Shown one piece after another: positions 10,427 to 64,000 of a DNA stretch of 64,000 bases; the stretch's first letter is position 1, and every line of letters starts with the position of its first letter. The notes beneath the pieces are model-generated. The model was given only the letters and a program-made list of their open reading frames with translations. It made no database searches and was not told where the DNA came from. The DNA is from Anaerohalosphaeraceae bacterium (lineage in GTDB: Bacteria > Planctomycetota > Phycisphaerae > Sedimentisphaerales > Anaerohalosphaeraceae). A program made the translations under genes and the position numbers. The stretch is taken from NCBI GenBank assembly GCA_035450485.1, contig DAOTMV010000012.1, positions 38,882 to 102,881 of the forward strand, given 5' to 3'.

Positions 10427-11426
10427 CTTCGGTTTCGTAGCCGGGGGCGTGCCAACAGGCGACGTTTCGGTCGGGGCGGACGGGGCGAAGTTCGGGTTCC
10501 ATAGTCTGGCAACGGCGGTCGTTTGCGCCGAGGGGGCAGCGAGGGTGGAATTTGCAGCCGGTCGGGAAGTGCAGGGGATCGGGGACCGTGCCGCCGATGA
10601 CGTCGAGGCGCTGGCGGCGGACGCCGAGGCGCGGCAGCGAGCGGAGCAGGCCCTGCGTGTAGGGGTGGAGGGGCTCTTCAAAGATTGCCTCGACGGGGGC
10701 GCTTTCGGCGACGCGCGAGGCATACATGACGACGACTTCGTCGGCATTTTCAGCGACGACGCCGAGGTCGTGGGTGATGAGGAGGACGGACATCTGCGTT
10801 TCGTACTGCAGGCGGCGGATGAGTTCGAGGATCTGGGCCTGGATGGTGACGTCGAGAGCCGTGGTCGGTTCGTCGGCGATGAGCAGCGAAGGGTTGCAGC
10901 TCAAGGCCATTGCGATCATGACGCGCTGACGCATGCCGCCGGACATCTGGTGTGGGTATTCCCTGGCGCGGCGCACGGGATCGGCGATGCCGACGAGCTG
11001 GAGCATGTCGGCGGCACGGCGCCAGGCGTCGGCGTCCTTCATCGGCTGGTGGAGCTGGATGGCCTCGACGATCTGCCGGCCGACGGTGTAGACGGGGTTG
11101 AGGCTTGTCATCGGCTCCTGGAAGATCATGGCGATGTCGTTGCCCCGGACCTGGCGCATTCGATTTTCCTTTGCGTTGAGCAGATCCTGGCGGTTGAACC
11201 AGACGCGGCCGCGGATGATTTTGCCGGGCGGGTCGGGTATGAGACGCAGTATGGACAGGGCTGTGACGCTCTTGCCGCAGCCGCTTTCGCCGACGAGGGC
11301 GACGGTTTTGGCCTTGCCGATGTCGAAGCAGACGTCATTGACGGCGCGGATTTCCCCGGAGTCGGTCTTGAAACTGACCGTGAGATTGCGAATCGACAGA
11401 AGGCTGTCTTTCTTTATGCGGCTCAT
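10302..11426 (-). CDS. peptide ABC transporter ATP-binding protein (OppD/DppD-like)
   Basis: Start MSRIKK overlaps the permease stop by ATGA. Walker A GESGCGKS, signature [16 protein letters not shown]. Has an unusually long acidic C-terminal tail that overlaps the next gene by ~40 codons. Confidence 0.85.
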
Positions 11427-12490
11427 GTCGTGCCTCTCAGTCGTGGATCGATGGCGTCGCGGAGGGCATCGCCGACGAGGTTGTAAGCCAGCACGGCAAG
11501 GAAGATTGCGATGCACGGGGGATAGACCATGTGCGGGGCGACGTTGAGCGAATCGTAAGCGGTGCGGAGGATGTTGCCCCAGGACGGGTCGGGCGGCTGG
11601 ACACCGAAGCCGAGCCAGCTCAAGCCCGCTTCGACGAGGACGGCGTCGGCGATGCCGAAGGTGACACTGACGAGGATAGGAGCCAAGGCGTTGGGGAGGA
11701 TGTGTCGGAACATGATACGTGCGTGGCCGATGCCGAGGGCGCGGGCGGCAGTGACATAGTCCTGGCCCTTGATGCGCATGAATTCGCCGCGTGTGTAGCG
11801 GGCGATGCTTGTCCAGCGGGTCAGGCCGATAACGATCATTACGTTGACGATGTTCGGTTCGAGCCAGACCATGATTGCGAGGATGAGAAAGAAGACCGGG
11901 AAGCAGACGACGATTTCGATGACGCGGCTGATGAGCATATCGACGAGGCCGCCCCAGTAGCCGGCCAGGCCGCCCATGAGGATACCGATGACGGCGGCGA
12001 TGCCCATGGAGACGAAGCCGACCTTGACGGAGACGGCGGCGCCGTGGATCATGCGTGCGGCGAGATCGCGACCGAGTTCGTCGGTGCCGAGCCAGTGGCG
12101 GCTGGAGGGGGGCTGGAGGAATTCGGTGCTTTGTTCGTACTCGTGGTACGGGATGAGCGGCCAGATGGCGAAGGCCTCGGGGTCGAGCTCCTTTTTGGCA
12201 TCGAACTGGGGCAGATTGAAGGGCCTGGGTTTCTCGATCCAGTGCGGCCCGGCGCCTCGGGACTGGAAGATCTCGATAACGGCGGGAAAGTACCAGCGGC
12301 CGTTGTACTTGCAGACGATGGGCTGATTTGTAGCCAGCAGCGGGCTGAAGATCCAGACGGCGAGCATCGCTGCAATGACGATGAGGCCGGCGAGGCCGCG
12401 GCGGTTGCGGCGGACGTTGCGCCAGACGTAACGCCAGTAGTTTTCGGAGGAGGCCTGCGGCTGGGGAAGTGTGATCGTCGGCTCAGTCAT
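11423..12490 (-). CDS. peptide ABC transporter permease (OppC/DppC-like)
   Basis: 355 aa, six TM segments, and an N-terminal OppC_N-like region. Confidence 0.85.
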   Translation of the reverse strand: MTEPTITLPQPQASSENYWRYVWRNVRRNRRGLAGLIVIAAMLAVWIFSPLLATNQPIVCKYNGRWYFPAVIEIFQSRGAGPHWIEKPRPFNLPQFDAKKELDPEAFAIWPLIPYHEYEQSTEFLQPPSSRHWLGTDELGRDLAARMIHGAAVSVKVGFVSMGIAAVIGILMGGLAGYWGGLVDMLISRVIEIVVCFPVFFLILAIMVWLEPNIVNVMIVIGLTRWTSIARYTRGEFMRIKGQDYVTAARALGIGHARIMFRHILPNALAPILVSVTFGIADAVLVEAGLSWLGFGVQPPDPSWGNILRTAYDSLNVAPHMVYPPCIAIFLAVLAYNLVGDALRDAIDPRLRGTT

Positions 12491-16661: not shown

Positions 16662-17103
16662 TGCGTGGCTTTCCAAAAATGCGCTAACAAAGCAAGATCG
16701 GCAATAATTACCTATGAGGATAACCTATTATTGGCGTCAAGTCAAGCCAATTCGCGGGCCAAAACGGCCGGCTGCCGGCAGCCAACGCAGCCGGAAAAAC
16801 GGACTAACGCCTGATAATATCGAGGGTTGCGAGGAATCCAGCAGGCGAAGTAAAGCAAAAACCGGATGCAGGTTATACCGGAAGGTGTCTTTGCCGAAAA
16901 AGTGGGTAGCGCCGGCAGGTCGCACACGTCTAAGGGGAAAAACGCCTCATTGGAACGAACTTACTGATTATGGAGTCAGTACAGTTTTTTTGTTGCGGGT
17001 GCGAGCGGGGGAGGCGTTACGCGGAATAAACGTTGAAACAGACGCGGGAACATGGTAGTTTGTGTGGCCTGGGATCAATAACCGCGACTCGCGGCAGAGA
17101 CAA

Positions 17104-18366
17104 ATGAAGAAGTACCTGCTCATCGTAGCTGCTCTTGTGATTATTGCCTGCCCAGGCTGTCAGCCGAAGGAACAGGACGGGGGTATCGTCGCGCAGCAGC
17201 GGATAAGCGAATTGCCTTTGGAGGGTCCCGCGGTAACGGATGAGGGCGGGGATACGGCGGAGGCGGGTGAGGGTGTACCTGAGACGCCAACCGAGGTAAC
17301 CGCCCTGCCGCAAGAGGCACAGGCACCGTCCGAAGAGATGACGACTGCGGTTGAGGAACCGACGGATACGGCACCGACGGAGGAGATCGCCGTGACGTCT
17401 GCGCCAAGAGAGGAGCAAAAACCCGAAGAGAAGGCGTCGGCGCCACCAGACGAGCAGGCAGGTGCGGAGGCAAAGGCGGATGAGGTCGAGGTGTCTGCCG
17501 AACCAGCCCAGAACGGAGAGGCAGGCGGCTCGACCGCTGCCAAGGCGGAGTCGGAGGCAGACACGGATAATGGCGCGGCTGCGGCGGAGGATTTCGAGCT
17601 GCTCGGACCGCGGATTCTTACTGCTTATGGAAATCTGCTGCGTTCTTATGTGGATGAGCACGGCAACGTCGACTATCCTACGCTGCGGCGAAAACGGGGC
17701 GAACTTTACGCTATTCTTCGGGATCTGGACAAGCTCGATCCGCGGGAGTACTTCCCATGGGGGCGCAACGAGAAGATCGCCTTCTGGATTAATGCATATA
17801 ACCTGTTCACCCTGAAGGTGGTCGTGGAGAATTACCCGATCGAGCCGAACTGGGCGAAGGTCATGCTCAACTATCCGAAGAACAGCATCGTTCACATCAA
17901 CGCCCCGTGGACAAAGCAGTATTTCAAGGTGATGGGGATGCAGCACACGCTTCGCGAGATCGAGCGAAGCAATCTGTTAGCACGCTACGGCGATCTGCGG
18001 GTGTGCATGGCTTTATCGTATGCTTCGATGGGCGGGGCGATGCTGCGTAACGAGCCATATCGTGGGGACAAACTTGACGAACAATTAGACGACCAGGTGA
18101 GGCGGTTCCTTGCGGACAAGCGAGGCTTTCAGATCAGCGACGGGACGGTCTGCTTAGCCGATATTTTCAACTGGTACAAGCAAGATTTCATCCGGAAGTA
18201 TGGGGAAGTTCGCAGGTTCCGGGAAAAGCCGGAACACATCCAGGCCTACCTGAATTTCATCGTGGGGTATGTCAGCGCCAGTGACGCGCAATATCTCGAG
18301 ACACGGGATTACACGGTCGAGTTCCGCAAATATGACTGGCGTCTGAACGAGCAAACGAACAAGTAA
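17104..18366 (+). CDS. DUF547-domain lipoprotein with acidic low-complexity linker
   Basis: MKKYLLIVAALVIIACPGC lipobox, then a ~150-aa E/A/T/P-rich linker. The C-terminal half matches DUF547 (…FWINAYNLFTLKVVV…, …YKQDF…). Confidence 0.65.
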   Translation: MKKYLLIVAALVIIACPGCQPKEQDGGIVAQQRISELPLEGPAVTDEGGDTAEAGEGVPETPTEVTALPQEAQAPSEEMTTAVEEPTDTAPTEEIAVTSAPREEQKPEEKASAPPDEQAGAEAKADEVEVSAEPAQNGEAGGSTAAKAESEADTDNGAAAAEDFELLGPRILTAYGNLLRSYVDEHGNVDYPTLRRKRGELYAILRDLDKLDPREYFPWGRNEKIAFWINAYNLFTLKVVVENYPIEPNWAKVMLNYPKNSIVHINAPWTKQYFKVMGMQHTLREIERSNLLARYGDLRVCMALSYASMGGAMLRNEPYRGDKLDEQLDDQVRRFLADKRGFQISDGTVCLADIFNWYKQDFIRKYGEVRRFREKPEHIQAYLNFIVGYVSASDAQYLETRDYTVEFRKYDWRLNEQTNK

Positions 18367-18414
18367 TCGACCGGCGAAGTACAACATTTCACCGACGGCG
18401 GGGCCTTATTACGT

Positions 18415-18444
18415 TTGACAGGGGCGGCGCAGTCGCTGTATATT
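18415..18444 (+). promoter_or_regulatory. sigma70 consensus promoter TTGACA-18-TATATT upstream of metK
   Basis: Perfect -35 and near-perfect -10, ~45 nt upstream of the metK start. The leader is too short for a SAM riboswitch. Confidence 0.4.
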
Positions 18445-18487
18445 ACGCTTTTTGTCATACATAAAGACCCTGTGAATAGGAGATAAT

Positions 18488-19693
18488 TTGATGATACGAA
18501 GGGCATCTGGAAGACGCCTGGACGGCCGGGGGCATCTGTTCACAAGCGAATCGGTAACGATGGGGCATCCGGACAAGGTCGCCGATCAGATCTCCGATTC
18601 CATTCTTGACGCCATCATCGCACAAGACCCCAACTGCCGGGTGGCCTGTGAGACGCTGGTTTCGACCGGTCTTGTGGTTATTGCGGGCGAGGTGACGACC
18701 ACCGCGATCGTGGATATTCCGGCCATCGCGCGGCAGACCATCAAACGCATCGGGTACACCGATCCGCATATCGGTTTTGATTATGAGAACTGCGCGGTGA
18801 TGGTTGCGCTGGGTCATCAGAGCCCGGACATATCGCAGGGTGTGACGGAGGGGCAAGGGCTGCACAAGGAACAGGGCGCGGGCGACCAGGGCCTGATGTT
18901 CGGGTACGCCTGCACGGAGACACCGAGCCTGATGCCGATGCCGATCTCACTGGCGCACAAGCTGACGGACCGGCTCACCCGGATGCGCGAATCGGGCAAG
19001 ATCGACTGGCTGCGGCCGGACGGCAAGAGCCAGGTAACCGTGGAGTACGGAGAGAACGGCAAGCCCAAGCGGATTCACACGGTGCTGATCAGCACGCAGC
19101 ATGCGCCGCACGTCAAGTACGCAACGATCAAGAAGGAAATCATCGAGAAGGTGATCATGCCGGTTCTGCCGAAGAAGTTGGTGGATGGCAAGATCACGAT
19201 TCACGTCAATCCCACGGGGCGGTTCGTGGTGGGCGGGCCAAAGGGCGACTGCGGCATGACGGGGCGAAAGATCATCGTGGACACTTATGGCGGTCGCGGC
19301 AGCCACGGCGGAGGGGCCTTCAGCGGTAAGGATCCGTCGAAAGTCGATCGGACGGCGAGTTATATGGCGCGTTACATCGCGAAGAATATCGTGGCGGCCG
19401 GACTGGCCGAGGCGTGCGAGGTGCAGTTGTCTTACGCGATCGGCGTGGCCAAGCCGCTTTCGGTGCTCGTTGATACGGAGGGGACGGCGAAGGTCGATGA
19501 GCTTCTGATCGAAGACCTGGTGTTGGAGCATTTCCCGCTGACGCCGAAGGGGATGATCGAGCATTTACAGTTGAGGCGGCCGATCTTCGCCGAGACGGCA
19601 CGCAACGGTCATTTCGGGCCCAACCTGCCGGAGTTCACGTGGGAGAAGACCGACATGGCGGCGACGCTGCGTAAGGCGGCGGGGCTGAAATAG
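18488..19693 (+). CDS. metK: S-adenosylmethionine synthetase
   Basis: HLFTSESV(TM)[29 protein letters not shown]…[16 protein letters not shown]. Complete MetK; the exact start (18488 vs 18491) is uncertain. Confidence 0.95.
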
Positions 19694-47663: not shown

Positions 47664-47775
47664 CCTGGATCGATGATGAGAAGCCGCGCCGGGCGTGACG
47701 GGCATATCGGCAACGATGTGCGGTCTCGTCCGGCGCTGCGGCCTCTGCGGCCACGGAATACAGAGAAGTCCGACA

Positions 47776-50700
47776 ATGGTGGAGAACAACGAAACGACCC
47801 CGATGCCGCATGACAATGCGGCCGACGCCGCGCTTCAAGGCGGGGCTTACGAGGTGATTCGCAAGCGTCTCGAGACCCATGGCCGCGAACTGCGGCAGCG
47901 TATGGTGAAACTGAACGCAGCCCGCAAGGATGTTTTCGGGGCGATCGAGTCCCGGCTGATCGCGGCCGAGCGCGTCACGACAAGCAACAACTGCATTCCG
48001 CGCGACATGATCCCGGTCGGCGACCGCTTCATCTTCGGTTACAACGTGTTCGTGGGCCTTAGGACCGAAACGACCCTGGCCGATGTGTTCTCGATTTATC
48101 GGCTTGTGGACGGCCAGTTCGTCGAATGCCCGCTTGAGCTGATCGAAGACGAGCGGTTCATCGCCGACTTCAAGAACCTCTTCAAATACTATCGCCACAC
48201 CACCTTCGCGAAGTTCGCCATCCGGGGCCCACACTTGTTCATGGTGTTCAGCATCGGCAAAAGCGCCGCAGACATCAAGACGTTTAAGTGGCTCATCACC
48301 GAGGGACGTCTTCGGTACCTCGATAACCGCAGCGACCATGAGCTCGTCTATCCGGCCCAGCACCAGTTCGAGTGGATCCGCACCACACAGGACATGCACC
48401 GCAGCGGCCTCAATCCGCACATCTCCATCGAAGAGCGTGTGTTCGTCGAAACCATCGGCGGCGACCTGACCATCAAAATCGAAGACAACACCGAGACCGG
48501 ACAGGGCATCTATTCCGAACCCGTGGACGACCCCGACCAGACGCTCATTGACGCCGAGATATACTACGCCATCATCGGCAATATCATCCTGCTGAAGATC
48601 CGCCCCTACCAGGAAGAGAATTTCCGTTACATTGTCTACAGCGAAAAAACGCGCCGCGCCGTTCGCATCGACTCCATCAAGGACGCCTGTGTGCTTCTGC
48701 CGCAGGGCCAGGGCCTCGTTTTCCCGCGGGGCTATTACCTGCAGACGGGTGAGACCCGGCAGTTCGAAACCAATGTAACCAACATGGTCTTCGAGAAATG
48801 CATCGCCTCGCCCAACGGCGAAGACTTCCTGTACCTCTTCTACAACCACGAAAACGGCGTCTACCTGCTGCTTCCGTACAATCTCATCGAGCAAAGCATG
48901 AGCACGCCGCTGATCTGTAACGGATTCTCCGTGTTCGATGACGGAACACTCATCTGCCTGCGGGCCGGCAGCGAACCGCAGAAGCATCACGCCGTCCAGA
49001 TCTGGAAAACCCCCTACTACGGTCCCGACCACACAATCGAAGTCTTGAAGGACGCGCCGCTTTACAAGATCGGCAACACAGCCATCGTGCGATGCATGGC
49101 CGAGTGCACGGAACTGTTGAACCTGTTGGCTAAAGACGAGTCCTATGCGAACCTGTACGTCGATATCGCCCGCAAGGCCCAGGACATTTGCGACAGTTAC
49201 TTCTGGCTGGGCGACGCGGAGGTCTTCAATCTGGCCGAGCCGCTTGGCAATATCCAGAAAGCCGCCAGCGCGGCGATCGAGGAGTTCGAGAAGGTTGTCC
49301 GCACCCGGCGAAACACCCAGAATGAAATAGATGCCGCGGCGCGCCAGGTCACAGAGGCGATCGCGGCCATTGACTACGACGCCCTCAACAACATCGATCT
49401 TTATGTAAACCATCTGGCGCAACTGCGGGCGCTGCGGGGCCGCGTCGTCTCGCTCAAGGATTTGCGGTACGCCGACCTGGAAACCGTCGAGAAACTCGAA
49501 ACCGAGGTCGCCCAGCACACGGACCGGCTCAGTTCGCTCTGTATACGGTTCCTTCTTGACCCGGAGGCGCTGGCGCCCTACCGGCGCCGCATCGACGAAC
49601 AGTCCGCACAGGTCGACAAGACACAGAAGGTCACCGAGGCCAGGGAGCTATCCGAGCGGGTTGACGAAACAGCCGCTCAACTGGAGATGCTCACCGAGAT
49701 CGTCAGCAATCTGAAGATCGAGGACGCCACCCAGACCGTTGCCGTCATCGACAATATTTCGCTGGTGTACTCGCGGCTCAACCAGGTCCGCAGCGCGCTG
49801 AAGAACCGCATTAACGAACTCGGTACAGTGGAAGGCCAGGCTGAATTTGCCGCCCAGATCAAGCTCCTTGACCAGTCCGTCATCAATTACCTCGATGTCT
49901 GCGACACACCTGAGAAGTGCGACGAGTATCTAACGAAGATAACCGTGCAGCTCGAAACGCTTGAAAGCCGGTTCGCCGACTTTGACGAATTCATCGGCCG
50001 CCTGACGGAGAAGCGCGAAGAGCTTTACAACGCATTCGAAAGCCGCAAGGTCCAGATCGTCGCACACCGTAACCAGCGGGCCTCGGCCCTCATGGCGGCC
50101 GCCGAGCGAGTCCTCAAGGGCATTGAAAACCGCCTCCGCAGCTTCAGCGACATTAATGAGATCAACGGCTACTTCGCTTCCGACCTCATGGTTCAGCGGG
50201 TCCATGACGCAGTGGAACAGTTGCTTGAGTTGGGCGACACCGTCAAGGCTGAGGATATCAGGACGCGCCTAAAGGCGCTCCAGCAGGATGCGGTGCGTCA
50301 GCTCAAGGACCGTCAGGCGCTCTTTGTCGACGGCGACAATATCATTCGCCTCGGCCGTCATCGCTTCCGTGTCAATCGTCAGCCGCTGGAAGGCACGATC
50401 GTCCGCCGCGGCGACAAGATGTTCTATCACCTTACCGGCACCGGCTTCTTCGAGGAGATCACCGATGAAGCACTGCTGGCGGCCCGCGACGCATGGGACC
50501 TCGAAGTGCCGTCGGAAAGCCCTGAGGTCTACCGGGCCGAGTACCTTGCGTATCTCATGCTGCAGGATGCGTCGGTGGATGCACAGTCGCTTGCTGCGGC
50601 CGAATTCGAGCAGGTGCTCGCCCGTGTCCAGGCCTTCATGGGCCCGCGCTACGAAGAAGGCTACATCAAGGGCGTACACGACCACGATGCGGCCAGGATT

Positions 50701-53181
50701 CTTCAGTCACTGGTACAAATGCGGGCCGAGATCGGCCTGCTGCGCTACCCCACGCAGGCCCGTGCGCTGGCCGCGGCCTTCTGGATGCTGTCCGATGAGG
50801 TCGACGCCAAAGCACGGCTGGCATCCCGCATCGCCGCCGCCGGGCGCATCCGCGAATTGTTTGACGATTCCGCGATCGAAAGCCTGTATGTCAGCCAGCT
50901 TACCGACTTGCTGAGCACGTTTGTCGATGAAACCGGCGTGTTCGACTCCAAATGGATCGCTCCGGCCGCGGAGTATCTTTTTTGCGAGCTGGCCAATCCC
51001 GATGATTCGGGCTTCGCCGTAAGCCGCATCGCCGTGGACATCCGTGCCGCTTTTGAGGATCATCTCCGAAAGCGCCGCTTTGTACAGCGTTTCGCGCAGG
51101 CCGACAACGCACTTTCGGGCGATCCTTTGGGTCGTTTGCGTCTGTTGACCGACTGGGTCGGAGCGTTCCTTCGCACAAGTGACGGCGCGAAACTCGAGTA
51201 TGCCGACGAAGTCGCCGTCCTGATGCTTGACGAGAAGGCGCAAAACCGACCTGTTATCGACAAGCCCATTGAGCGGCAACTCAGCGGGATACTCGGTTCA
51301 CACCCCCGCATCGTTCAGGCAGGACTTGAACTGAACTACTGCGATTTCATGACACGGCTGAACCATCATGCACAGCACATCGTGCCCCGCTTTGTCGAAT
51401 TCCGTCGGATCAAGCAAGACCTGGTGGAACAGTACGCCGAGCGTCTCCGCCTTGATGAGTTCAAGCCGCGTGTGCTGTCGACCTTCGTCCGCAACAAGCT
51501 CATCGACAAGGTCTACCTGCCCCTGATCGGCGATAATCTGGCCAAACAGATCGGTTCCGCCGACGAGACGAAGCGCACCGACACGCAAGGCCTGCTGCTG
51601 CTGATCAGCCCGCCCGGCTACGGCAAGACCACCCTGATGGAATATATGGCCAACCGTTTAGGCCTGACCTTCATGAAGATCAACGGGCCGGCCATCGGCA
51701 GCCATGTCACGGCGCTTGACCCGGCGACCGCCCCCAACTCAGCCGCCCGCGAAGAGCTTCAGAAGCTCAATCTTGCCTTCGAGATGGGCGACAACGTCAT
51801 GATTTACATCGACGACATTCAGCATACCAACCCGGAGTTCCTGCAAAAGTTCATTTCGCTCTGCGATGCCCAGCGGCGCATCGAGGGCGTCTTCGGCGGC
51901 AGGCCAAGAACATACGACCTCCGTGGAAAACGCGTCTGCGCCGTCATGGCCGGCAACCCGTACACCGAAAGCGGCGAGAAATTCAAGATACCCGACATGT
52001 TAGCCAACCGTGCCGACACGTACAATATTGGCGATATCGTCGGGGACAACCGCGAAGAATTCGTCTCCAGCTACGTGGAAAATTGCCTTACGTCCAACCC
52101 CGTGCTGCAGTCGCTGGCGATGCGCAGCCAGAAGGACGTGTACACCGTGATGAAAATCGCCGAGACCGGGCGACAGGACAACATGGAATTCGAGGCTAAC
52201 TACAGCGCCGATGAACTCGACGAGTATGTCGCGACAATGAAAAAGCTCTTCGTCGTTCGCGAGGTGCTGCTCAAGGTCAACCAGCAGTACATCGCCTCGG
52301 CGGGGCAAAACGACGCCTACCGCACCGAGCCGCCCTTCCTGCTGCAAGGCTCCTACCGTAACATGAACCGTATCGCCGCACGCGTTCTGCCTGTCATGAA
52401 TGACGACGAGTTGTGGACGCTCATCGTGTCGAGCTACGAGCAGGATGCACAGACACTCACCACCGGAGCTGAAGCCAACATGCTCAAATTTCGTGAACTC
52501 ATCGGGCATCTGACCGATGAACAAGCCAGGCGGTGGAGCGATATCAAGAAGACCTTCACACGCAATCTGCTGCTTGGCGCCGACACCGACGACCGTGTCG
52601 GAAAGATCATCGGCCAGCTCAATGCCTTCAGCGCAGGGCTGGACGGGATCAGGGACGTCCTGGCGGAAGGCATCGCCGCCGCCCGGCATAAGGAGGAGAA
52701 CGCCTGCCGCCAACAGGCGGAAGACGCCGCCCGACAGGTTGAAAAGAGCAGCCGTGATGATGCTGTACAAATTTTGGGTCGACAGGTACTTGATCGATTG
52801 GGTGAAGTCATCGCCGCCTTGAAGGAACGCCAGAAGGCACAGCAAGACCAGGAACAAACAGCCGAAATCAGGCGTCATGACGAGAACACCCGTATGCTCG
52901 TCACCGTACTCGAAGAACAGTTCAAAACGATGGAAACGTGGCTCATTCCGGTGCACCACAGTGACGCCGATCGCAGGGCGTACTTCCAGCACCTCGTTGG
53001 ACGTTTCCAGGAGATGGTGGATGGCTATACGCGGTTAATCGAGGCACTGCGCAACAAGTACGAACCGTTGCTGCGCAGCGAGGCGCCTGTATACCCAACG
53101 AGTAAAGACGAACAACCGAAGTCATCGCCGCCGCCAAAGCGGAACCAGAACAAATCGAAGGACAACCCTAAAAAGCAGTGA
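47776..53181 (+). CDS. giant (~1800 aa) multidomain protein with embedded MoxR/AAA_5-type AAA+ ATPase domain; function unknown
   Basis: Single uninterrupted ORF with good codon periodicity. Start at MVENNETTPM; an alternative start is 47803. AAA+ core around ORF residues ~1290-1480: Walker A LLLISPPGYGKTTL, Walker B VMIYIDDIQH, sensor-1 AVMAGNPY, and IPDMLANRADTYNI resembling the MoxR L..LDRF motif. Flanked by a β-rich N-domain, ~500 aa of coiled coil and a K/P-rich tail. Confidence 0.7.
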   Translation: MVENNETTPMPHDNAADAALQGGAYEVIRKRLETHGRELRQRMVKLNAARKDVFGAIESRLIAAERVTTSNNCIPRDMIPVGDRFIFGYNVFVGLRTETTLADVFSIYRLVDGQFVECPLELIEDERFIADFKNLFKYYRHTTFAKFAIRGPHLFMVFSIGKSAADIKTFKWLITEGRLRYLDNRSDHELVYPAQHQFEWIRTTQDMHRSGLNPHISIEERVFVETIGGDLTIKIEDNTETGQGIYSEPVDDPDQTLIDAEIYYAIIGNIILLKIRPYQEENFRYIVYSEKTRRAVRIDSIKDACVLLPQGQGLVFPRGYYLQTGETRQFETNVTNMVFEKCIASPNGEDFLYLFYNHENGVYLLLPYNLIEQSMSTPLICNGFSVFDDGTLICLRAGSEPQKHHAVQIWKTPYYGPDHTIEVLKDAPLYKIGNTAIVRCMAECTELLNLLAKDESYANLYVDIARKAQDICDSYFWLGDAEVFNLAEPLGNIQKAASAAIEEFEKVVRTRRNTQNEIDAAARQVTEAIAAIDYDALNNIDLYVNHLAQLRALRGRVVSLKDLRYADLETVEKLETEVAQHTDRLSSLCIRFLLDPEALAPYRRRIDEQSAQVDKTQKVTEARELSERVDETAAQLEMLTEIVSNLKIEDATQTVAVIDNISLVYSRLNQVRSALKNRINELGTVEGQAEFAAQIKLLDQSVINYLDVCDTPEKCDEYLTKITVQLETLESRFADFDEFIGRLTEKREELYNAFESRKVQIVAHRNQRASALMAAAERVLKGIENRLRSFSDINEINGYFASDLMVQRVHDAVEQLLELGDTVKAEDIRTRLKALQQDAVRQLKDRQALFVDGDNIIRLGRHRFRVNRQPLEGTIVRRGDKMFYHLTGTGFFEEITDEALLAARDAWDLEVPSESPEVYRAEYLAYLMLQDASVDAQSLAAAEFEQVLARVQAFMGPRYEEGYIKGVHDHDAARILQSLVQMRAEIGLLRYPTQARALAAAFWMLSDEVDAKARLASRIAAAGRIRELFDDSAIESLYVSQLTDLLSTFVDETGVFDSKWIAPAAEYLFCELANPDDSGFAVSRIAVDIRAAFEDHLRKRRFVQRFAQADNALSGDPLGRLRLLTDWVGAFLRTSDGAKLEYADEVAVLMLDEKAQNRPVIDKPIERQLSGILGSHPRIVQAGLELNYCDFMTRLNHHAQHIVPRFVEFRRIKQDLVEQYAERLRLDEFKPRVLSTFVRNKLIDKVYLPLIGDNLAKQIGSADETKRTDTQGLLLLISPPGYGKTTLMEYMANRLGLTFMKINGPAIGSHVTALDPATAPNSAAREELQKLNLAFEMGDNVMIYIDDIQHTNPEFLQKFISLCDAQRRIEGVFGGRPRTYDLRGKRVCAVMAGNPYTESGEKFKIPDMLANRADTYNIGDIVGDNREEFVSSYVENCLTSNPVLQSLAMRSQKDVYTVMKIAETGRQDNMEFEANYSADELDEYVATMKKLFVVREVLLKVNQQYIASAGQNDAYRTEPPFLLQGSYRNMNRIAARVLPVMNDDELWTLIVSSYEQDAQTLTTGAEANMLKFRELIGHLTDEQARRWSDIKKTFTRNLLLGADTDDRVGKIIGQLNAFSAGLDGIRDVLAEGIAAARHKEENACRQQAEDAARQVEKSSRDDAVQILGRQVLDRLGEVIAALKERQKAQQDQEQTAEIRRHDENTRMLVTVLEEQFKTMETWLIPVHHSDADRRAYFQHLVGRFQEMVDGYTRLIEALRNKYEPLLRSEAPVYPTSKDEQPKSSPPPKRNQNKSKDNPKKQ

Positions 53182-55558: not shown

Positions 55559-58762
<3,204 letters not shown>

Positions 58763-58785
58763 TCGTACTCTGCAATGGCAGAGAT

Positions 58786-60066
58786 TCACGGCATACGAAA
58801 GAGACGCCCGTCGCCCGGACCTAATGCGATCGTCACTTTGCCCTCGTGATCGGTATTGCCAGCCTCTATCCATTCGCCGGTGGCCCGGTCCAGTTCCTTA
58901 AGCCGCCCGCCGCCGCGGACAAACTGCAGGGTTGCTTTGGCGCTTTGTCTGTAATCGCGATTGACCAGCATAAAAGCCGTTGCGCTGCCCCCCTGCCCGA
59001 AGAGACCAAGTACGTAAGACCCCTCCGAACATATCCGAACGGGTGAATCGCCCGGTACGGGTTCGGTGCCGAGCGGCAGCGGATCGGTATGGTAGGCGCC
59101 CAGTGAGTCAAGCGTCATCAAGGCAGGCCCGAACTTCTCGATCTCGGCATTAAGAGCCGCAACATCCGCCGCCAGCGGCGACGGCTTGCCGTCCCTGTAC
59201 AGCCCCCCGTACGATTCCGGTCCCCAGTATGTGAAATAACTGATGCCGCGGCCGCCATATGCCATGGTCGTAAAGGCAAGCCATCGCACCTCCGCGGCCG
59301 TGGGGAACCGCCAGGCCTTCACCACTGTGCTGGCCTGGATGATGTTCAGAAACGGCTTGCCGCATGCAAGCGCCGCCTCACGAATGAGCGCCAGATTGAG
59401 AAAATACTCTGGGCCGTCGCCGTCCAGGAAGAAGTGGTAATGGTCATAGCTGATCAAGTCGGGTTTGACAGTCTCCACAAACCGCATCAGGTGTTCGCGA
59501 TAACGCAGCACCACGCCGTTGTCCGAACCTATGCCGGCAAGATGGACGGGATAACCGTCGCGGCGGGCCTGCGAAGTGGTGATTCCCAACTGCTGTTCGT
59601 TGGCATACGTTGGAAAGAGATTGATATAAGCCAGATGCTTCGGGTCGCGCTGCCTGAGATAGGCCACCAATCGGCCAAGGGCGGCAAATGCGCCGGCGCT
59701 CGGCTCGTCGACAATATAATACGCCTCAAGCGCCGGGTGATCCTTGACGCGTGCAATCAGGGCGTCCAGTCCCGTACGCTTGTCCGCATCATCCAATATC
59801 TCCGGCCGCAGGAGGCTGTTGGTAAGCATGGCCCGCAGGCCGTGCCGCGCCGCAACGTCCAGACCTTCCTCCGGGACCCACGTAAGGTTGTAGTGTTCGG
59901 CGGCAACCCGGACCAGCGCCTCGTCCGTCGCCGGCGGCGGGCACCAGAACGTGATGAGAAACCGGTCCTGCCTCCATCCGGCGTTTGATTGTACATCCGC
60001 ACCAAAAGCCGGCCATACCAGCAGCGCCATCAGCCCGATGCCCACCAGGATCATTCTCCTGCACAT
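58786..60066 (-). CDS. secreted glycoside-hydrolase-like TIM-barrel protein (family uncertain)
   Basis: Strong RBS GGAGAAAGGAGAG and a signal peptide. The pattern of aromatic/acidic motifs (…YINLFPTYAN…, …ISYDHYHF…) is suggestive of a GH-like (β/α)8 fold; not assignable to a family by eye. Confidence 0.4.
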   Translation of the reverse strand: MCRRMILVGIGLMALLVWPAFGADVQSNAGWRQDRFLITFWCPPPATDEALVRVAAEHYNLTWVPEEGLDVAARHGLRAMLTNSLLRPEILDDADKRTGLDALIARVKDHPALEAYYIVDEPSAGAFAALGRLVAYLRQRDPKHLAYINLFPTYANEQQLGITTSQARRDGYPVHLAGIGSDNGVVLRYREHLMRFVETVKPDLISYDHYHFFLDGDGPEYFLNLALIREAALACGKPFLNIIQASTVVKAWRFPTAAEVRWLAFTTMAYGGRGISYFTYWGPESYGGLYRDGKPSPLAADVAALNAEIEKFGPALMTLDSLGAYHTDPLPLGTEPVPGDSPVRICSEGSYVLGLFGQGGSATAFMLVNRDYRQSAKATLQFVRGGGRLKELDRATGEWIEAGNTDHEGKVTIALGPGDGRLFRMP

Positions 60067-60157
60067 TGCTCTCTCCTTTCTCCGGTAAAATGCGTTGAGG
60101 TTTCATGCCGCTTACAGTATAGTATAATCTAAACGTTATTGACAGTCGGAGGATATT

Positions 60158-61150
60158 ATGAAAACCAGGGCCGTATGCATCATCGTTTTCGCCATCGCCG
60201 CGTTTATTGCACTCACATATGATGCCGCAACCGCATCACCGGACGACCTGTCTGTAAAGACCTATCGCAACCCTATCATCAACCGCATCGGCCCGGCCGA
60301 CCCTGCCGTGATTCGCTACCAGGGCAAGTACTACATGTACCCAACGTGGGACGGGCGGGGTTATGACGTGTTCGTCTCCGATGACCTTGTCACGTGGCAA
60401 CAGAAGCCCAAATGCTACACCGATTCCCGCGGCGGGGCATGGGCGCCGGATGTATTTTGCAACAGCAGGGGCGACGGCAAATTCTATCTCTACTACACGG
60501 TCAACAACCCTAAGGGCGGCAAGCTGATCGGCGTCGCCGTGGCGGACCATCCGCTGGGCCCGTTTGTCGACAAGGGCAACCTGATCGAGAATAATGTCAT
60601 CGACGCGCACCTGTTCCAGGACGACGACGGCAAACTGTACCTCTACTTCGTGCGTATCGGCGACCCGTTTCAGATATTTGTCCAGCCGATGGCCGACCCG
60701 CTGACCCTGACAGGCGCCCCCACGGAAGTCATCCGTGCCGAAACGCCATGGGAGACGGCCCGAGGTAAGGTGACCGAGGGCCCCTGGATGCTCAAGCACA
60801 AGGGACTGTATTATTTAATGTATTCCGGCAGCGGCGCCAATGGGCCGGAGTACGCAATCGGCTACGCCACCGCCAAGTCGCCTCTCGGCCCGTTTGTCAA
60901 GTATGCCGGCAACCCCATCGCCAAACAGGGCAACGGCGTCTTCGGACCCGGCCATCATTGCGTCGTCGAAGGCCCCGACGGCGGCCTGTGGATGGTCTAT
61001 CATCAGCAGAACAGTACAAAGGTGGGTTGGGACCGCTTCCTCGCCATCGACCCGTTGTGGTTCGACGACGAGGGCGTCATTCACGTCAAGACCACACGCA
61101 ATAGTGAGGAACCTCTGGACCACGCCTTGGCACTGAAGGAAATAAAATGA
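60158..61150 (+). CDS. glycoside hydrolase family 43 protein (β-xylosidase/arabinanase-like)
   Basis: Signal peptide. GH43 five-bladed propeller motifs …RNPI…ADP…YYMY (catalytic Asp), …WAPD…, …EGPWM (catalytic Glu region). GGAGGA RBS. Confidence 0.8.
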   Translation: MKTRAVCIIVFAIAAFIALTYDAATASPDDLSVKTYRNPIINRIGPADPAVIRYQGKYYMYPTWDGRGYDVFVSDDLVTWQQKPKCYTDSRGGAWAPDVFCNSRGDGKFYLYYTVNNPKGGKLIGVAVADHPLGPFVDKGNLIENNVIDAHLFQDDDGKLYLYFVRIGDPFQIFVQPMADPLTLTGAPTEVIRAETPWETARGKVTEGPWMLKHKGLYYLMYSGSGANGPEYAIGYATAKSPLGPFVKYAGNPIAKQGNGVFGPGHHCVVEGPDGGLWMVYHQQNSTKVGWDRFLAIDPLWFDDEGVIHVKTTRNSEEPLDHALALKEIK

Positions 61151-61202
61151 ACGGGCGCAGGCCAAAGTGCTGAAGAAGCACGGCAAGCCACCCCCTCACC
61201 AC

Positions 61203-61250
61203 TACGCCCGGCAGGATTCGAACCTGCGACCTTCGGTTTAGGAAACCGAC
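61203..61250 (-). tRNA. truncated tRNA-Arg(CCU) 3' fragment (anticodon stem to discriminator), attachment-site repeat
   Basis: Minus-strand sense: G-TCGGT-TTCCTAA-ACCGA-AGGTC-GCAGG-TTCGAAT-CCTGC-CGGGCGT-A. This gives the anticodon arm (U33, anticodon CCU, A37), variable loop, T-arm with a canonical TTCGAAT loop and the 3' acceptor strand. No matching 5' acceptor strand or D-arm is present upstream, where AT-rich DNA begins. Confidence 0.7.
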
Positions 61251-61305
61251 AACATAATTACATAAAATCTTTACAGTAAATAACTTATGGATTTCTCTGT
61301 TTTTA

Positions 61306-61456
61306 CTTGTCCTTTGCATTGTCCTTTTATGGACTTGCAAAACTCCAAAATACTGCGTTTATCTTCTCTTTTTAGGGACTCCAAAACTCTACCAAAGCGT
61401 TTTTTTATAGTGTCCAAAAACTCTTTTCAATTCTGTTTTATGGACTAAAGAAACCC
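61306..61456. repeat. iteron-like direct repeats (4x ~TTTTATGGACT(C/T)CAAAACTC) in AT-rich non-coding DNA
   Basis: Copies at ~61326-61345, 61371-61389, 61405-61423 and 61436-61456, plus a TGTCCTTT doublet at 61306-61326. Located ~200 nt downstream of the primase-helicase gene. Confidence 0.5.
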
Positions 61457-61633
61457 TGAAGGATTCTTTACATGGCCGCATTGTCCCGGTATCCTGTATG
61501 GCATGGCTGAAGACTGGAAAAAAGTATTGAAAGATTTCCCGATGGACGCTCTCCGAATGATTATTGAATGGGGCATTTTCATCGGTATCATTGCCCTTTT
61601 GGGTTATCTTTTAAGCGACTGAATCAACCGGGA

Positions 61634-63142
61634 CTATCCTTTTACGATAACCCCGTGTTCCCTGAACGTAATGCTTTGTGGGTCCAGACTGTACGCAAGC
61701 CGCATCCCCTGCCCTTTCCCATTCCGGGCCTTGAGAATATGCAGGGTCCGATTGTGTTCCGTCTCGATGGTTCCGCAGGCGGTTTTGACTTCATGGACTT
61801 TCTTATCGTGAATCTCAAGCCAGAGAATCGTTTGGGCAAACCGGGCAAAAGCAGCGGAACCAGCCAGCTTATTCATATCCGGGCAGTCATAATCCTTGAT
61901 GGGGTGCGTTACAAGGATAATACTGCAATCGTACTCAGTCGCCGCTCGTTTGACCTGTTGCAAGAATGTATTATCTTCCTCCCACTGTTTCGACGTGGTA
62001 TGCTCTGCCGCGGTAACGGGGTCAATCGCGATAATCCTACATCCCGCCTTTGCTTTTTGCCGGACCCATTCCGCAATCTGTGCCAGGGTCGGCATAGTTT
62101 CGGGGCAAACTTCGATACATCGGGCCATAGATTCGGCCAGCGGTTCATATTCGGCCAGGATATGCCGCGTTTCTTCCGGATTTGCCGCCGTCCAATCGGG
62201 GTCCGTCATGCCCTGCTGTTTGCTTTGCTGTGCAATCATCCGCCGCAGGTGGTATTCCCGTGAATCTTCAAGCTCATACAGGGCAATCGGGATTCCCTCC
62301 CTATGCCAGAAGGTCGCCGCCTCCAACAGCAAAAGGGATTTTGACGCACCCGGACCGCCGCAAAGGATCGTTATTGCCCCCGGCAAAAGGGCCTTTGTCG
62401 GGCCTCCGATCAATACCCACGGCCAGGCAACCGCCCGCCGCGTGCCGTTGATTTCCGCCTCGTATTGTTCCGCAAGGGCGGTACAGATCCCGCGGGGCTT
62501 TGCCTTACTCAAAGCATCGTAAAGGGCCTGCTGAATCTTTACTCGCTCCGTACGGACCGTTTCCAGCACCCGGACATAATCAACAACATCCTCCTTTTCC
62601 GCAAGGTCCAGTTCTGCCGGGTCCAATATCGAAATACGGGGGGCGGGGGTCAATCCCTGTAAAATTTCCTCCACCTGCCGCATGTGATTATGTCCGGCCT
62701 CGTCCTGATCGGGCCAGAGAATGAGATTTTTCCCTGAAAGCAAGGTCCAATCGGCATAAGGGGCTTTTCCTGCCCCCCCCGGGCTTGTGGTCGCGATAAT
62801 ACCGTATTCGTGCAGACAATGGACCGCCTTTTCACCTTCGACGATTACCACGGTATCGGCCAGCCGTATCCGGGCCCGATTATAGATCGGCCAGGGCTTC
62901 GGGGGGGCCTGCATCACAAAGCCGCCATTTTCCGGCCTGCACTGCCTGAACGTCTTGCCCTCTGCCGTTCGGCAGCGGAATACAATCATATCCGGCTTTT
63001 GTGTAATCGGGTCGGTGTACTGGTAAACCGCCTCCACTTCCTTCTTCCCCAGCCCGAGCCGCTCATTGATTTTCTCCAACCGCGGAGCCAGCGACGTGAC
63101 GGTCGGCTTGGGCTCGCCGATACTCGGCAAGTACCGATTCAT
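61634..63142 (-). CDS. primase-helicase fusion (TOPRIM primase domain + DnaB/RepA-like P-loop helicase domain), mobile-element replication protein
   Basis: 502 aa. TOPRIM motifs VVIVEGEKAV…ILWPDQDEAGHNHM. Helicase Walker A CGGPGASKSLLLLE and Walker B IIAIDPV…, with a typical RecA-like C-terminal domain. Confidence 0.75.
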   Translation of the reverse strand: MNRYLPSIGEPKPTVTSLAPRLEKINERLGLGKKEVEAVYQYTDPITQKPDMIVFRCRTAEGKTFRQCRPENGGFVMQAPPKPWPIYNRARIRLADTVVIVEGEKAVHCLHEYGIIATTSPGGAGKAPYADWTLLSGKNLILWPDQDEAGHNHMRQVEEILQGLTPAPRISILDPAELDLAEKEDVVDYVRVLETVRTERVKIQQALYDALSKAKPRGICTALAEQYEAEINGTRRAVAWPWVLIGGPTKALLPGAITILCGGPGASKSLLLLEAATFWHREGIPIALYELEDSREYHLRRMIAQQSKQQGMTDPDWTAANPEETRHILAEYEPLAESMARCIEVCPETMPTLAQIAEWVRQKAKAGCRIIAIDPVTAAEHTTSKQWEEDNTFLQQVKRAATEYDCSIILVTHPIKDYDCPDMNKLAGSAAFARFAQTILWLEIHDKKVHEVKTACGTIETEHNRTLHILKARNGKGQGMRLAYSLDPQSITFREHGVIVKG

Positions 63143-63407
63143 TGACGTTTTGGCGCATTATCTTTCCGGACCCGTCCCGTAGGACGTTTTTTTGCCGATC
63201 GCGCGCCAAACCCTTAACGGTTGTGGTCTTTTTCGCGCCATAGGGACGATAGGGGTACAGCGGACAGTCGGAAACGGTGCATTTTCTGATTTCATCCTTC
63301 TGCCAGCAGGTACAATCGAGACATTTTGCCTTCAAAGCCGCCGCCTTGCTCTTGCCGGACATGGCCTTTTTGTAAGTCTCACGGTAACGCTCTGGTATTT
63401 CTTCCAT
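63063..63407 (-). CDS. small Cys-rich (zinc-finger-like) protein
   Basis: 114 aa. CLDCTCW…C…CPLYPY cysteine cluster. Overlaps the primase-helicase start by 80 nt; the exact start/stop relationship is uncertain. Confidence 0.4.
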   Translation of the reverse strand: MEEIPERYRETYKKAMSGKSKAAALKAKCLDCTCWQKDEIRKCTVSDCPLYPYRPYGAKKTTTVKGLARDRQKNVLRDGSGKIMRQNVNESVLAEYRRAQADRHVAGSAVGENQ

Positions 63408-63489
63408 TCTGAATATAGTTACTCCTTTCTACAGCTTTTTAACACGTATTTCAGTCCTCGGCCTGTCCGAGTACTCTTTGACCCGGTGC

Positions 63490-64000
63490 ACGGCAAGCCT
63501 CGGCCTTCAGGCCGGGGAAGGATAGCGCGGACGCCGTAGGCGTCCTTTGGCCGGTCAGTGTGGCGTCTGCTGCTGCTCGATGTACTGGCGCACGATGGAA
63601 ATCGGCGCGCCGCCGCAGCTTGAAGCGAAATAGGACGGCGACCACAGCACGCCTTTCCAGTAGCGCTTCTGGATGTCGGGCCGTTCCTTCCGCAGCAGGC
63701 GACTGGAGACGCCTTTGAGGCTGTTCACGAGATTGGAGACAGCCACCTTGGGCGGGTATTCCACAAGCAGGTGAACGTGATCGTCCTCGCCGTCCATCTC
63801 GATCAGTTGCGCCTCGAAGTCGGCGCAGACCTTGGCGAAGATCGTGCGCAGCCGGTTGATGGCGTCGCCATCGAATACCCTGCGGCGATATTTCGCTACA
63901 AAGACCAAATGGACATGCATCTTAAAAACGCAGTGTCGTCCATGCCTAATATCGTTGTCGTCGCTCATAGGCCAAATTATAATATCCGCATGCAACGCCT
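63490..64000. mobile_element. IS200/IS605-family insertion sequence (right end with subterminal hairpins; left end beyond window)
   Basis: Hairpins GGACGCC-gta-GGCGTCC (63529-63545) and CGGCC-ttca-GGCCG (63501-63514) lie just 3' of the tnpA stop, as expected for an IS200 RE. No TnpB is present in the window. Confidence 0.5.
63555..63968 (-). CDS. tnpA: IS200/IS605-family transposase TnpA (HUH Y1 transposase)
   Basis: 137 aa from the internal ATG. HVHLLVEYPP (HUH motif), …SRLLRKE…WSPSYFASSCGGAPISIVRQYIEQQ with the catalytic Tyr. Typical size for TnpA_IS200. Confidence 0.85.
   Translation of the reverse strand: MSDDNDIRHGRHCVFKMHVHLVFVAKYRRRVFDGDAINRLRTIFAKVCADFEAQLIEMDGEDDHVHLLVEYPPKVAVSNLVNSLKGVSSRLLRKERPDIQKRYWKGVLWSPSYFASSCGGAPISIVRQYIEQQQTPH

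Follow-up and report, generated by a model that had tools for sequence, protein, structure and literature searches.

An AT-rich repeat block beside a primase-helicase gene is probably the attachment arm of a tRNA-Arg(CCT)-integrated element in an Anaerohalosphaeraceae bacterium

What is a short AT-rich block with direct repeats doing at the 3' end of a replicative helicase gene? Such a block lies in a 64,000-nt stretch of an Anaerohalosphaeraceae contig (hereafter the window), and the initial annotation, made from the letters alone, took it for the iteron-type origin of an element that replicates by itself after excision. Much of that description stands, namely an integrative element with replication proteins and real repeats in non-coding DNA, but the origin role found no support. 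The comparisons described below indicate instead that the block is probably the attR right arm of an integrative element, inserted by a tyrosine integrase into the 3' part of a tRNA-Arg(CCT) gene. The features of the locus are listed in Table 1.

Table 1. Features at the right end of the integrated element, in window coordinates.
Feature	Position	Strand	Basis
3' 48 nt of tRNA-Arg(CCT), anticodon stem to 3' end, forming the attR core	61203..61250	-	Rfam and comparisons
AT-rich non-coding right arm of the integrated element	61251..61502	.	No such DNA in empty-site strains; composition
Partial fifth copy of the 21-nt repeat, CTTATGGATTTC	61283..61294	+	Repeat finder
Tandem doublet AAAGGACAA with a 12-nt period; candidate integrase arm-type sites	61307..61327	-	Both arms, relatives
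Four 21-nt direct repeats	61325-61345, 61369-61389, 61403-61423, 61436-61456	+	Repeat finder, shuffles
Promoter-like site 8 nt before the 39-codon ORF (TTTACA, 17 nt, TATCCT)	61467..61495	+	Promoter scan, weak
Further GGACAA-type site, GGGACAATGC read on the minus strand	61478..61486	-	Repeat finder, arm comparison
39-codon ORF, small protein with a hydrophobic C-terminus	61503..61622	+	L008/L225 homology from the ATG
Inverted repeat, 15-nt arms 80% complementary, across two convergent stop codons	61601..61653	.	Repeat finder
Toprim + DnaB-type (SF4) primase-helicase, 502 aa, lacking zf-CHC2	61634..63142	-	Domain and homolog searches
Cys-rich 114-aa ORF	63063..63407	-	ORF list; duplicate in L214
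IS200-type Y1 transposase gene	63555..63995	-	One of several IS200/IS605 copies

The block stands out by its composition and by its repeats. Its non-coding part (61251-61502) has a GC content of 0.345, or 0.371 when extended to 61633, compared with 0.577 in the left flank (60000-61200) and 0.591 in the whole window; this contrast of 34.5% vs. about 58% in the flanks bears out the low GC content first reported. This part is identical in five independent assemblies from different samples. The four irregularly spaced repeats described earlier are also found, with a unit of 21 nt (consensus TTTTATGGACT-N-CAAAACTC), spacings of 44, 34, and 33 nt, and, according to the repeat finder, 71%–76% identity to the first copy; the whole array spans 61325..61456 on the plus strand. 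Among 1000 dinucleotide-preserving shuffles, four or more non-overlapping copies matching at 15 or more of the 21 positions never occurred (0/1000), and the maximum of three copies was reached in only 5/1000. When up to four edits were allowed, no further occurrence of the motif was found in the 64-kb window. These features of the block are thus real, as judged from the repeat finder, the shuffle test, and the absence of other copies from the window. The doublet noted earlier is likewise exact, with TTGTCCTTT at 61307-61315 and 61319-61327 on the plus strand.

A coding origin of the repeats in another reading frame was rejected, in line with the earlier description of the block as lying outside such a gene: the two ORFs over the repeats (53 aa and 48 aa) have no match in Pfam or PHROG, and two of the spacings, 44 and 34 nt, are not divisible by three. 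The non-coding extent given previously applies to 61251-61502 but not to the remainder, since the small ORF there (61503-61622) has 39 rather than 21 codons. An Rfam scan of 58000-64000 returned nothing besides a partial tRNA, a terminator scan called no terminator at the inverted repeat 61601..61653, and the viral contigs held neither an exact match to the repeat block nor a relative of the helicase.

This partial tRNA had been overlooked in the initial annotation, although it adjoins the block on its left. Rfam matches it at 61208-61276 on the minus strand (30.2 bits, partial), and ARAGORN predicts no tRNA in the window. Identity to intact tRNA-Arg(CCT) genes runs to 61250 and not past it, so the tRNA-Arg gene is interrupted at 61250/61251, and the block begins at exactly that base. 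The empty site was reached by looking up the GH43 protein encoded at 60158-61150. In the sister-strain contigs L197-L200 and L205, a GH43 gene of 100% identity is followed by an intact tRNA-Arg(CCT) gene (11046-11119 in L197) and by ThuA with no insert, and the same insert-free order is found in L207-L212. The window is identical to the empty-site contigs only up to 61250, and therefore all DNA rightward of 61251 is inserted. Four contigs from different samples end inside or at the duplicated core described below (L005, at window position 61196; L206, at window position 61250; L215; and L216), and in L215 the T arm is the L008-type variant. Taken together, these ends and this variant fit populations in which the site is empty in some members and occupied in different ways in others.

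The other junction of the insert was then found by looking up ThuA. It is held by two contigs with an identical ThuA, L213 and L214, which come from other samples of the same population and may not represent the window's own genome. Their gene order is ThuA, an intact tRNA gene (11168-11243), an AT-rich left arm, an integrase gene, three HTH_17 genes, and an HTH_36 gene. The core is duplicated: 46 nt at window positions 61205-61250, reading GTCGG…CCGGGCG, are identical to L214 positions ~11196-11241. The last bases of the tRNA differ between the two junctions, as expected if the element supplies a new 3' end, and the predicted attP junction reads …TTATGTAATTATGTTG + 46-nt core + CGTTCCCCTTTTAACTCC…. 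In both contigs, the gene of a 437-aa tyrosine integrase (PF00589, 5e-21) begins 500 nt beyond the intact tRNA. For the region of 224 aa that precedes its catalytic domain, no Pfam match, including to an arm-binding domain, was found. The three HTH_17 proteins, which are excisionase-like, have 219, 66, and 83 aa in this order, and the left part of the element is 88%–90% identical to L008, a contig carrying a related element.

Two other assignments were discarded. A Tn7-like transposon end with transposase sites does not agree with the interrupted tRNA gene and the duplicated 46-nt core, the lack of a short target duplication, and a terminus other than TGT/ACA. A 288-aa Xer-like integrase encoded between two IS605 copies, which was considered as the element's own enzyme, was dropped in favour of the 437-aa integrase beside the intact tRNA.

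Part of the Cys-rich ORF occurs a second time in inverted orientation (window 63127-63330 vs. L214 11521-11721, 93.5% identity), with one copy upstream of the truncated helicase gene and the other between the left att arm and the integrase gene. L008 lacks the duplicate present beside the left arm in L214, and the arrangement hints at an inversion or insertion. The two contig ends bordering the unassembled middle of the island (L214 15277-15295, L005 ~38-57) carry a 19-nt sequence, TATTCAGCAAGCCCTAATTA, as inverted copies.

Within the arm, the doublet can be connected with the integrase. It lies 56-77 nt from the core and reads AAAGGACAA in the direction of the integrase gene. In L214, AAAGGACA(A) is present in the left arm at +95, +117, and +132, and again, inverted, at +148. 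The two arms share 7 9-mer positions vs. 1.27 expected, a number reached in 3/500 shuffles. Two complete elements in the same tRNA-Arg(CCT) target, with integrases 62% (L217, 9650-19467) and 65% (L220, 8597-15770) identical, also have the doublet in their right arms, as GGACAAAC with a 12-nt period at -58 to -85. More precisely, L217 contains AAAAGGACAAACACGGGGACAAAC at -60 to -85 in the right and GGGACAAACTAAGGGACAAAC in the left arm, and L220 contains AAAAGGACAAACCAGAGGACAAACC at -58 to -82 in the right and GCGGACAAACTAAAGGACAAAC in the left arm. In L218 and L008, the doublet was seen in the left arm, and a GGACAA(A) doublet is present in five left arms altogether. In alignments, the GGACAA columns are invariant and the distance from the core is kept. 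The motif thus differs from the core, is present in both arms, and is conserved among related integrases, and more distant family members (L014, L042, and L032) have tandem motifs of their own in both arms.

In well-studied systems, arm-type sites are bound by the N-terminal domain of the integrase, and sites for directionality factors are also located in the att arms (PMC2951348, PMC11963761). Since the doublet is common to both arms and keeps its distance from the core in related elements, it looks like a pair of integrase arm-type sites, and we regard 61307-61327 as probable sites of this type. The insertion boundary, the duplicated core, the empty site, the integrase at the other end, and the conserved motif shared by the arms can be seen directly; for the role of the doublet itself, sequence and position suggest binding. 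In the elements compared, the left-arm doublet is followed by TTGACG, a candidate -35 box for the int promoter.

These observations can be combined into a model. The integrase would insert the element into the 3' part of tRNA-Arg(CCT) by tyrosine-integrase recombination, and its N-terminal part would bind the doublet at 61307-61327 by analogy with lambda-type heterobivalent systems. Such arm binding may help to fold the arms onto the core during integration and excision, and the AT-rich, phased DNA of the block may assist the bending. The 21-nt repeats would most likely be sites for an accessory DNA-binding protein, with one of the three HTH_17 proteins, a host bending protein, or a regulator of the 39-codon ORF as candidates. 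The replication origin would be located elsewhere, within the initiator gene of the HTH_36 type that contains four GATAGTCGGAAA repeats; phage lambda gene O offers a parallel.

A close parallel to the arm is found in lambda, whose integrase is a heterobivalent tyrosine recombinase with arm-type sites, and whose P arm also contains Xis, IHF, and Fis sites. As in lambda attP/attR, an AT-rich arm of about 250 nt lies beside a short core, with a tandem motif that occurs in both arms and is unlike the core. The element further resembles lambda in its integrase with a long N-terminal extension and in its small excisionase-like HTH genes (PMC2951348). In contrast to lambda, the core is here a 46-nt tRNA stretch, the motif AAAGGACAA and the proteins are unrelated in sequence, the four 21-nt repeats of the block at a spacing of 3-4 turns have no counterpart, and binding is here a prediction. 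KplE1 (CPS-53), with its attL in tRNA argW, and ICEMlSym R7A, with its attP, also have tRNA-targeting integrases (PMC2951348, PMC11963761). Their att arms carry several arm-type sites and multiple directionality-factor sites, and arm sites overlap the int promoter (PMC2951348, PMC11963761). The directionality-factor sites of these two systems are int-proximal, whereas the repeats described here are int-distal, and the sequences are unrelated.

Given these findings, can the block still be an origin? One proposal had been a P4-like satellite. The alpha protein of P4 combines a primase with an SF3 (D5-like) helicase and a C-terminal ori-binding domain, and P4 has octamer repeats at ori/crr. The protein encoded in the window matches DnaB_C, AAA_25 (SF4), and PHROG 239 (primase/helicase) and has no extra C-terminal domain, so the helicase family (SF4, not SF3) rules out a P4-like alpha protein and, with it, this part of the initial annotation. 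A second possibility is a SaPI-like origin, in which the helicase or a partner would load at iterons 3' of the helicase gene. The locus has the general appearance of one, with four phased 21-nt repeats in AT-rich DNA at a spacing of about 3-4 helical turns, which are separated from the helicase stop codon by just 12 nt and the 120-nt ORF; the 3' end of the helicase gene points to the block, and the gene converges on this ORF. SaPI origins are indeed located just downstream of rep, with iterons flanking an AT-rich stretch (PMC9371898). Yet SaPI Rep, an SF3 helicase, reads its 5-6-nt iterons via a C-terminal winged-helix domain (PMC9371898), whereas the chain of the helicase in question ends 17 residues after its ATPase domain (DnaB_C) and therefore lacks an origin-binding domain. 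Thus, what adjoins the repeats is not a cognate initiator but the 3' end of a helicase gene without a DNA-binding tail.

The relatives of the helicase also speak against an origin at this place. Versions 99.7%–99.8% identical in L008 and L225 are followed by other DNA, with an 89-aa gene and no repeats. We further scanned 27 loci with full-length relatives of the primase-helicase (L009-L042) for groups of three or more direct 11-mers, at up to one mismatch, in a span of 300 nt. Only 2/27 loci had such a cluster in the 1.5 kb downstream, but 24 clusters fell into the 1 kb upstream of the start of the helicase gene; the remaining 500-nt bins contained 0-2 clusters each, except for one distant bin with four. 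In the 12 loci inspected, the upstream clusters are inside the initiator gene, and both initiator genes of the island have their own, unrelated iterons. In addition, the block adjoins the att core, and part of it belongs to a conserved arm architecture: the doublet recurs in the other arm and is constant in related elements, as would be expected of a terminal att arm. Helicase-adjacent iterons acting as an origin are therefore not what the comparisons suggest, and we consider an origin in the block, SaPI-like or not, very unlikely. Like SaPIs and other PICIs, the element is integrative and encodes an integrase, small HTH regulators, and a primase/helicase, with AT-rich repeats 3' of the helicase gene; unlike them, it has a DnaB-type (SF4) enzyme without a winged-helix domain, a separate HTH_36 initiator holds the iterons, and the repeats 3' of the helicase gene are not conserved in relatives.

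The iterons of this element family show a different organization. In all 12 loci inspected, the arrays lie inside a gene for an initiator of 240-380 aa with an N-terminal HTH and a conserved C-terminal domain. The HTH is HTH_36 in the two initiators tested, with the one of L010 above the Pfam cut-off. The arrays occupy the linker, with 11/22/33-nt phasing, and consist of 3-6 direct repeats within the coding sequence that are translated as short peptide repeats. The initiator of the element studied here contains four GATAGTCGGAAA iterons (L214 14750-14831). A second replication module of the island, consisting of two DUF1376-like proteins and a DnaC-like loader, is located at L005 130-1901 and has about eight (A)AAGTAACG(G) repeats inside a 247-aa gene (L005 700-866). 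Neither iteron set resembles the 21-nt repeats of the block. That the latter are copies of the element's iterons was rejected, as the best ungapped match comprises 9/16 positions and only the 7-mer AAACTCC is common to both.

Gene O of phage lambda contains ori-lambda. The resemblance to lambda O/ori, which concerns the element family and not the block, lies in the 3-6 direct repeats with 11/22/33-nt phasing in the initiator linker and in the gene order, the replicative helicase gene following immediately on that of an initiator with an N-terminal HTH. In contrast, the HTH_36 initiator is unrelated to O, and its partner is a T7 gp4-like primase-helicase instead of P/DnaB. Such a lambda-O-like origin-in-gene arrangement appears to recur across integrative elements of Planctomycetota, with origin activity predicted from the position of the arrays.

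If the block is an att arm, what are its 21-nt repeats for? They are particular to this element, as the right arms of L217 and L220 have no counterpart; a CATAAGT element is conserved in L217 at the place of the partial fifth copy (window 61283..61294). In the left arm, they were not found repeated, and only a shortened TTTTAACTCCAAAACC beside the core resembles them. With no counterparts in these three arms, a role in recombination is a guess. Their spacing of 33-44 nt is also wider than the tightly packed sites typical of excisionases. Accessory recombination sites or local regulatory sites are nevertheless the likeliest explanation for the repeats. A T-tract-N5-9-CAAAA site is enriched 7-29 nt from the core in the left arms of 4/5 elements, but this motif was defined after seeing the data and is kept as a hint only. 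It is decidedly unlikely that the repeats form a new kind of accessory array, at which the SF4 primase-helicase, with no dedicated DNA-binding domain, would be loaded or would use a second origin, or on whose widely spaced sites (3-4 turns) an excisionase-like HTH_17 protein would wrap the int-distal arm and set the direction of recombination.

A regulatory function more specific to the locus would be that of a promoter/operator of the 39-codon ORF, with the repeats binding a regulator of the small membrane protein. The four repeats lie upstream of the ORF in the same orientation (-178 to -47 from the ATG), a promoter-like site (61467-61495) follows the last of them, and the ORF is kept at 88%–100% nucleotide identity in several other contexts. 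Elsewhere, however, the 5' side of the ORF has another 60-nt spacer and a divergent 89-aa gene, without repeats, and the promoter scan barely exceeded chance with 2 sites vs. 0.9 expected. Moreover, the homology to L008 starts exactly at the ATG, and the repeat-bearing DNA is therefore a recombinant junction rather than a native promoter. This interpretation is thus unlikely, although it would be compatible with the arm-site reading of the doublet. The ORF itself is present in L008 at 100% identity and in other contigs at 90% on the amino-acid level; as a conserved family it was rejected, with only one 90% identical variant among 1.84 billion representatives. Together with the divergent 89-aa ORF, it forms a module of about 480 nt that is found twice in each of two loci (L223 5216-5691 and 8628-9105; L225 1-191 and 3128-3603). 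There, the copies enclose, as direct repeats, a cassette that encodes a 331-aa Xer-like integrase; the module is possibly the duplicated target of another integrative element. Genes for RecT, YqaJ, and SSB are located near the module in these loci.

Finally, the repeats might be a functionless relic, left by local duplications as the AT-rich foreign DNA at the terminus of a degraded element decayed. The element has indeed decayed, with the loss of a zinc finger, the insertion of IS200/IS605 copies, and the inverted duplication, and the repeats are only 71%–76% identical, contain indels, and lack counterparts in relatives. A relic would hardly be expected, however, to have spacings of 42, 44, 34, and 33 nt, which correspond to whole helical turns, or to keep the unit parts TTTTA, GGAC, and CAAAAC across the copies. 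The block is also identical in five assemblies, which may reflect recent common ancestry only. Overall, we consider this explanation extremely unlikely.

The decay is most apparent in the primase-helicase. Its relatives consist of PF01807, a Toprim region, and PF13481/PF03796, but the copy in the window lacks the zinc-binding domain and thereby departs from the T7 gp4-like type. Its homology to P0001, the intact version in L008, begins at residue 99, beyond the invariant C18, C42, and C47. The zf-CHC2 domain is present in P0001 and in most of the 120 homologs among the matches listed, which typically have 570-600 aa, with a few shorter forms. Judged by this domain loss, the primase of the window is probably defective. 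A foreign stretch of 34 residues (window 63040-63142) forms the N-terminus of the protein. The intact L008 version comprises 565 aa, and its DNA is 99.7% identical to window 61503-63040. A 1.5-kb module, comprising most of the primase-helicase gene and the 39-codon ORF, is shared at 99.7%–99.8% identity between window 61503-63040, L008 10295-11829, and L225 3484-4407, and there is no similarity outside it. With its sharp breakpoints at the ATG of the ORF and inside the primase gene, the module resembles the product of a recent exchange.

At least two IS200/IS605 copies (tnpA Y1 and tnpB) with repeated ends are present nearby (window 63481-63526 and 63946-64000; L001 1362-5485). They bracket the gene of the 288-aa Xer-like integrase, and all assemblies of the locus break there. 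The lost zinc finger and the position among the IS200/IS605 insertions make autonomous replication of this copy doubtful, and it is unlikely that it can replicate alone. Since the element is composite and broken by the IS copies and by a second replication module, the block itself may also no longer work with its partners.

The block is a real but ordinary feature of a known type, a tRNA-targeting att arm at the end of a decayed composite element, and no new mechanism is called for. Its value is mainly corrective. AT-rich direct repeats beside a helicase gene are easily mistaken for an origin, and it is the empty sites, the second junction, and the related elements that place the repeats in an att arm. 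The comparison also describes a small family of tRNA-integrating elements in Planctomycetota (Phycisphaerae, Anaerohalosphaeraceae) from anaerobic digesters. It offers attB, attL, and attR sequences with a candidate arm-type motif, GGACAA(A), and lambda-O-like iterons in the HTH_36 initiator gene upstream of a T7 gp4-like primase-helicase. Genetic tools for Planctomycetota are scarce, and parts for them might be drawn from an integrase with defined att sites and from a candidate origin, which would be a modest gain rather than a conceptual advance.

Some further features of these elements and of the window deserve mention. The 9.8-kb element in L217, with its 62% identical integrase and the same tRNA target, includes a Phage_capsid_4/Mu gpT-like capsid gene (17065-18894), which suggests that some family members are phage satellites. 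Downstream of the 89-aa gene, L008 contains an inverted fragment resembling the 3' end of tRNA-Pro(TGG) (12303-12345) that may be a remnant of another att site. Outside the element, the window encodes an ORF of 1828 aa (47695-53181), whose homologous products contain DUF3686, DUF7902, and AAA domains, and which is located upstream of pspA-like and PQQ-repeat genes.
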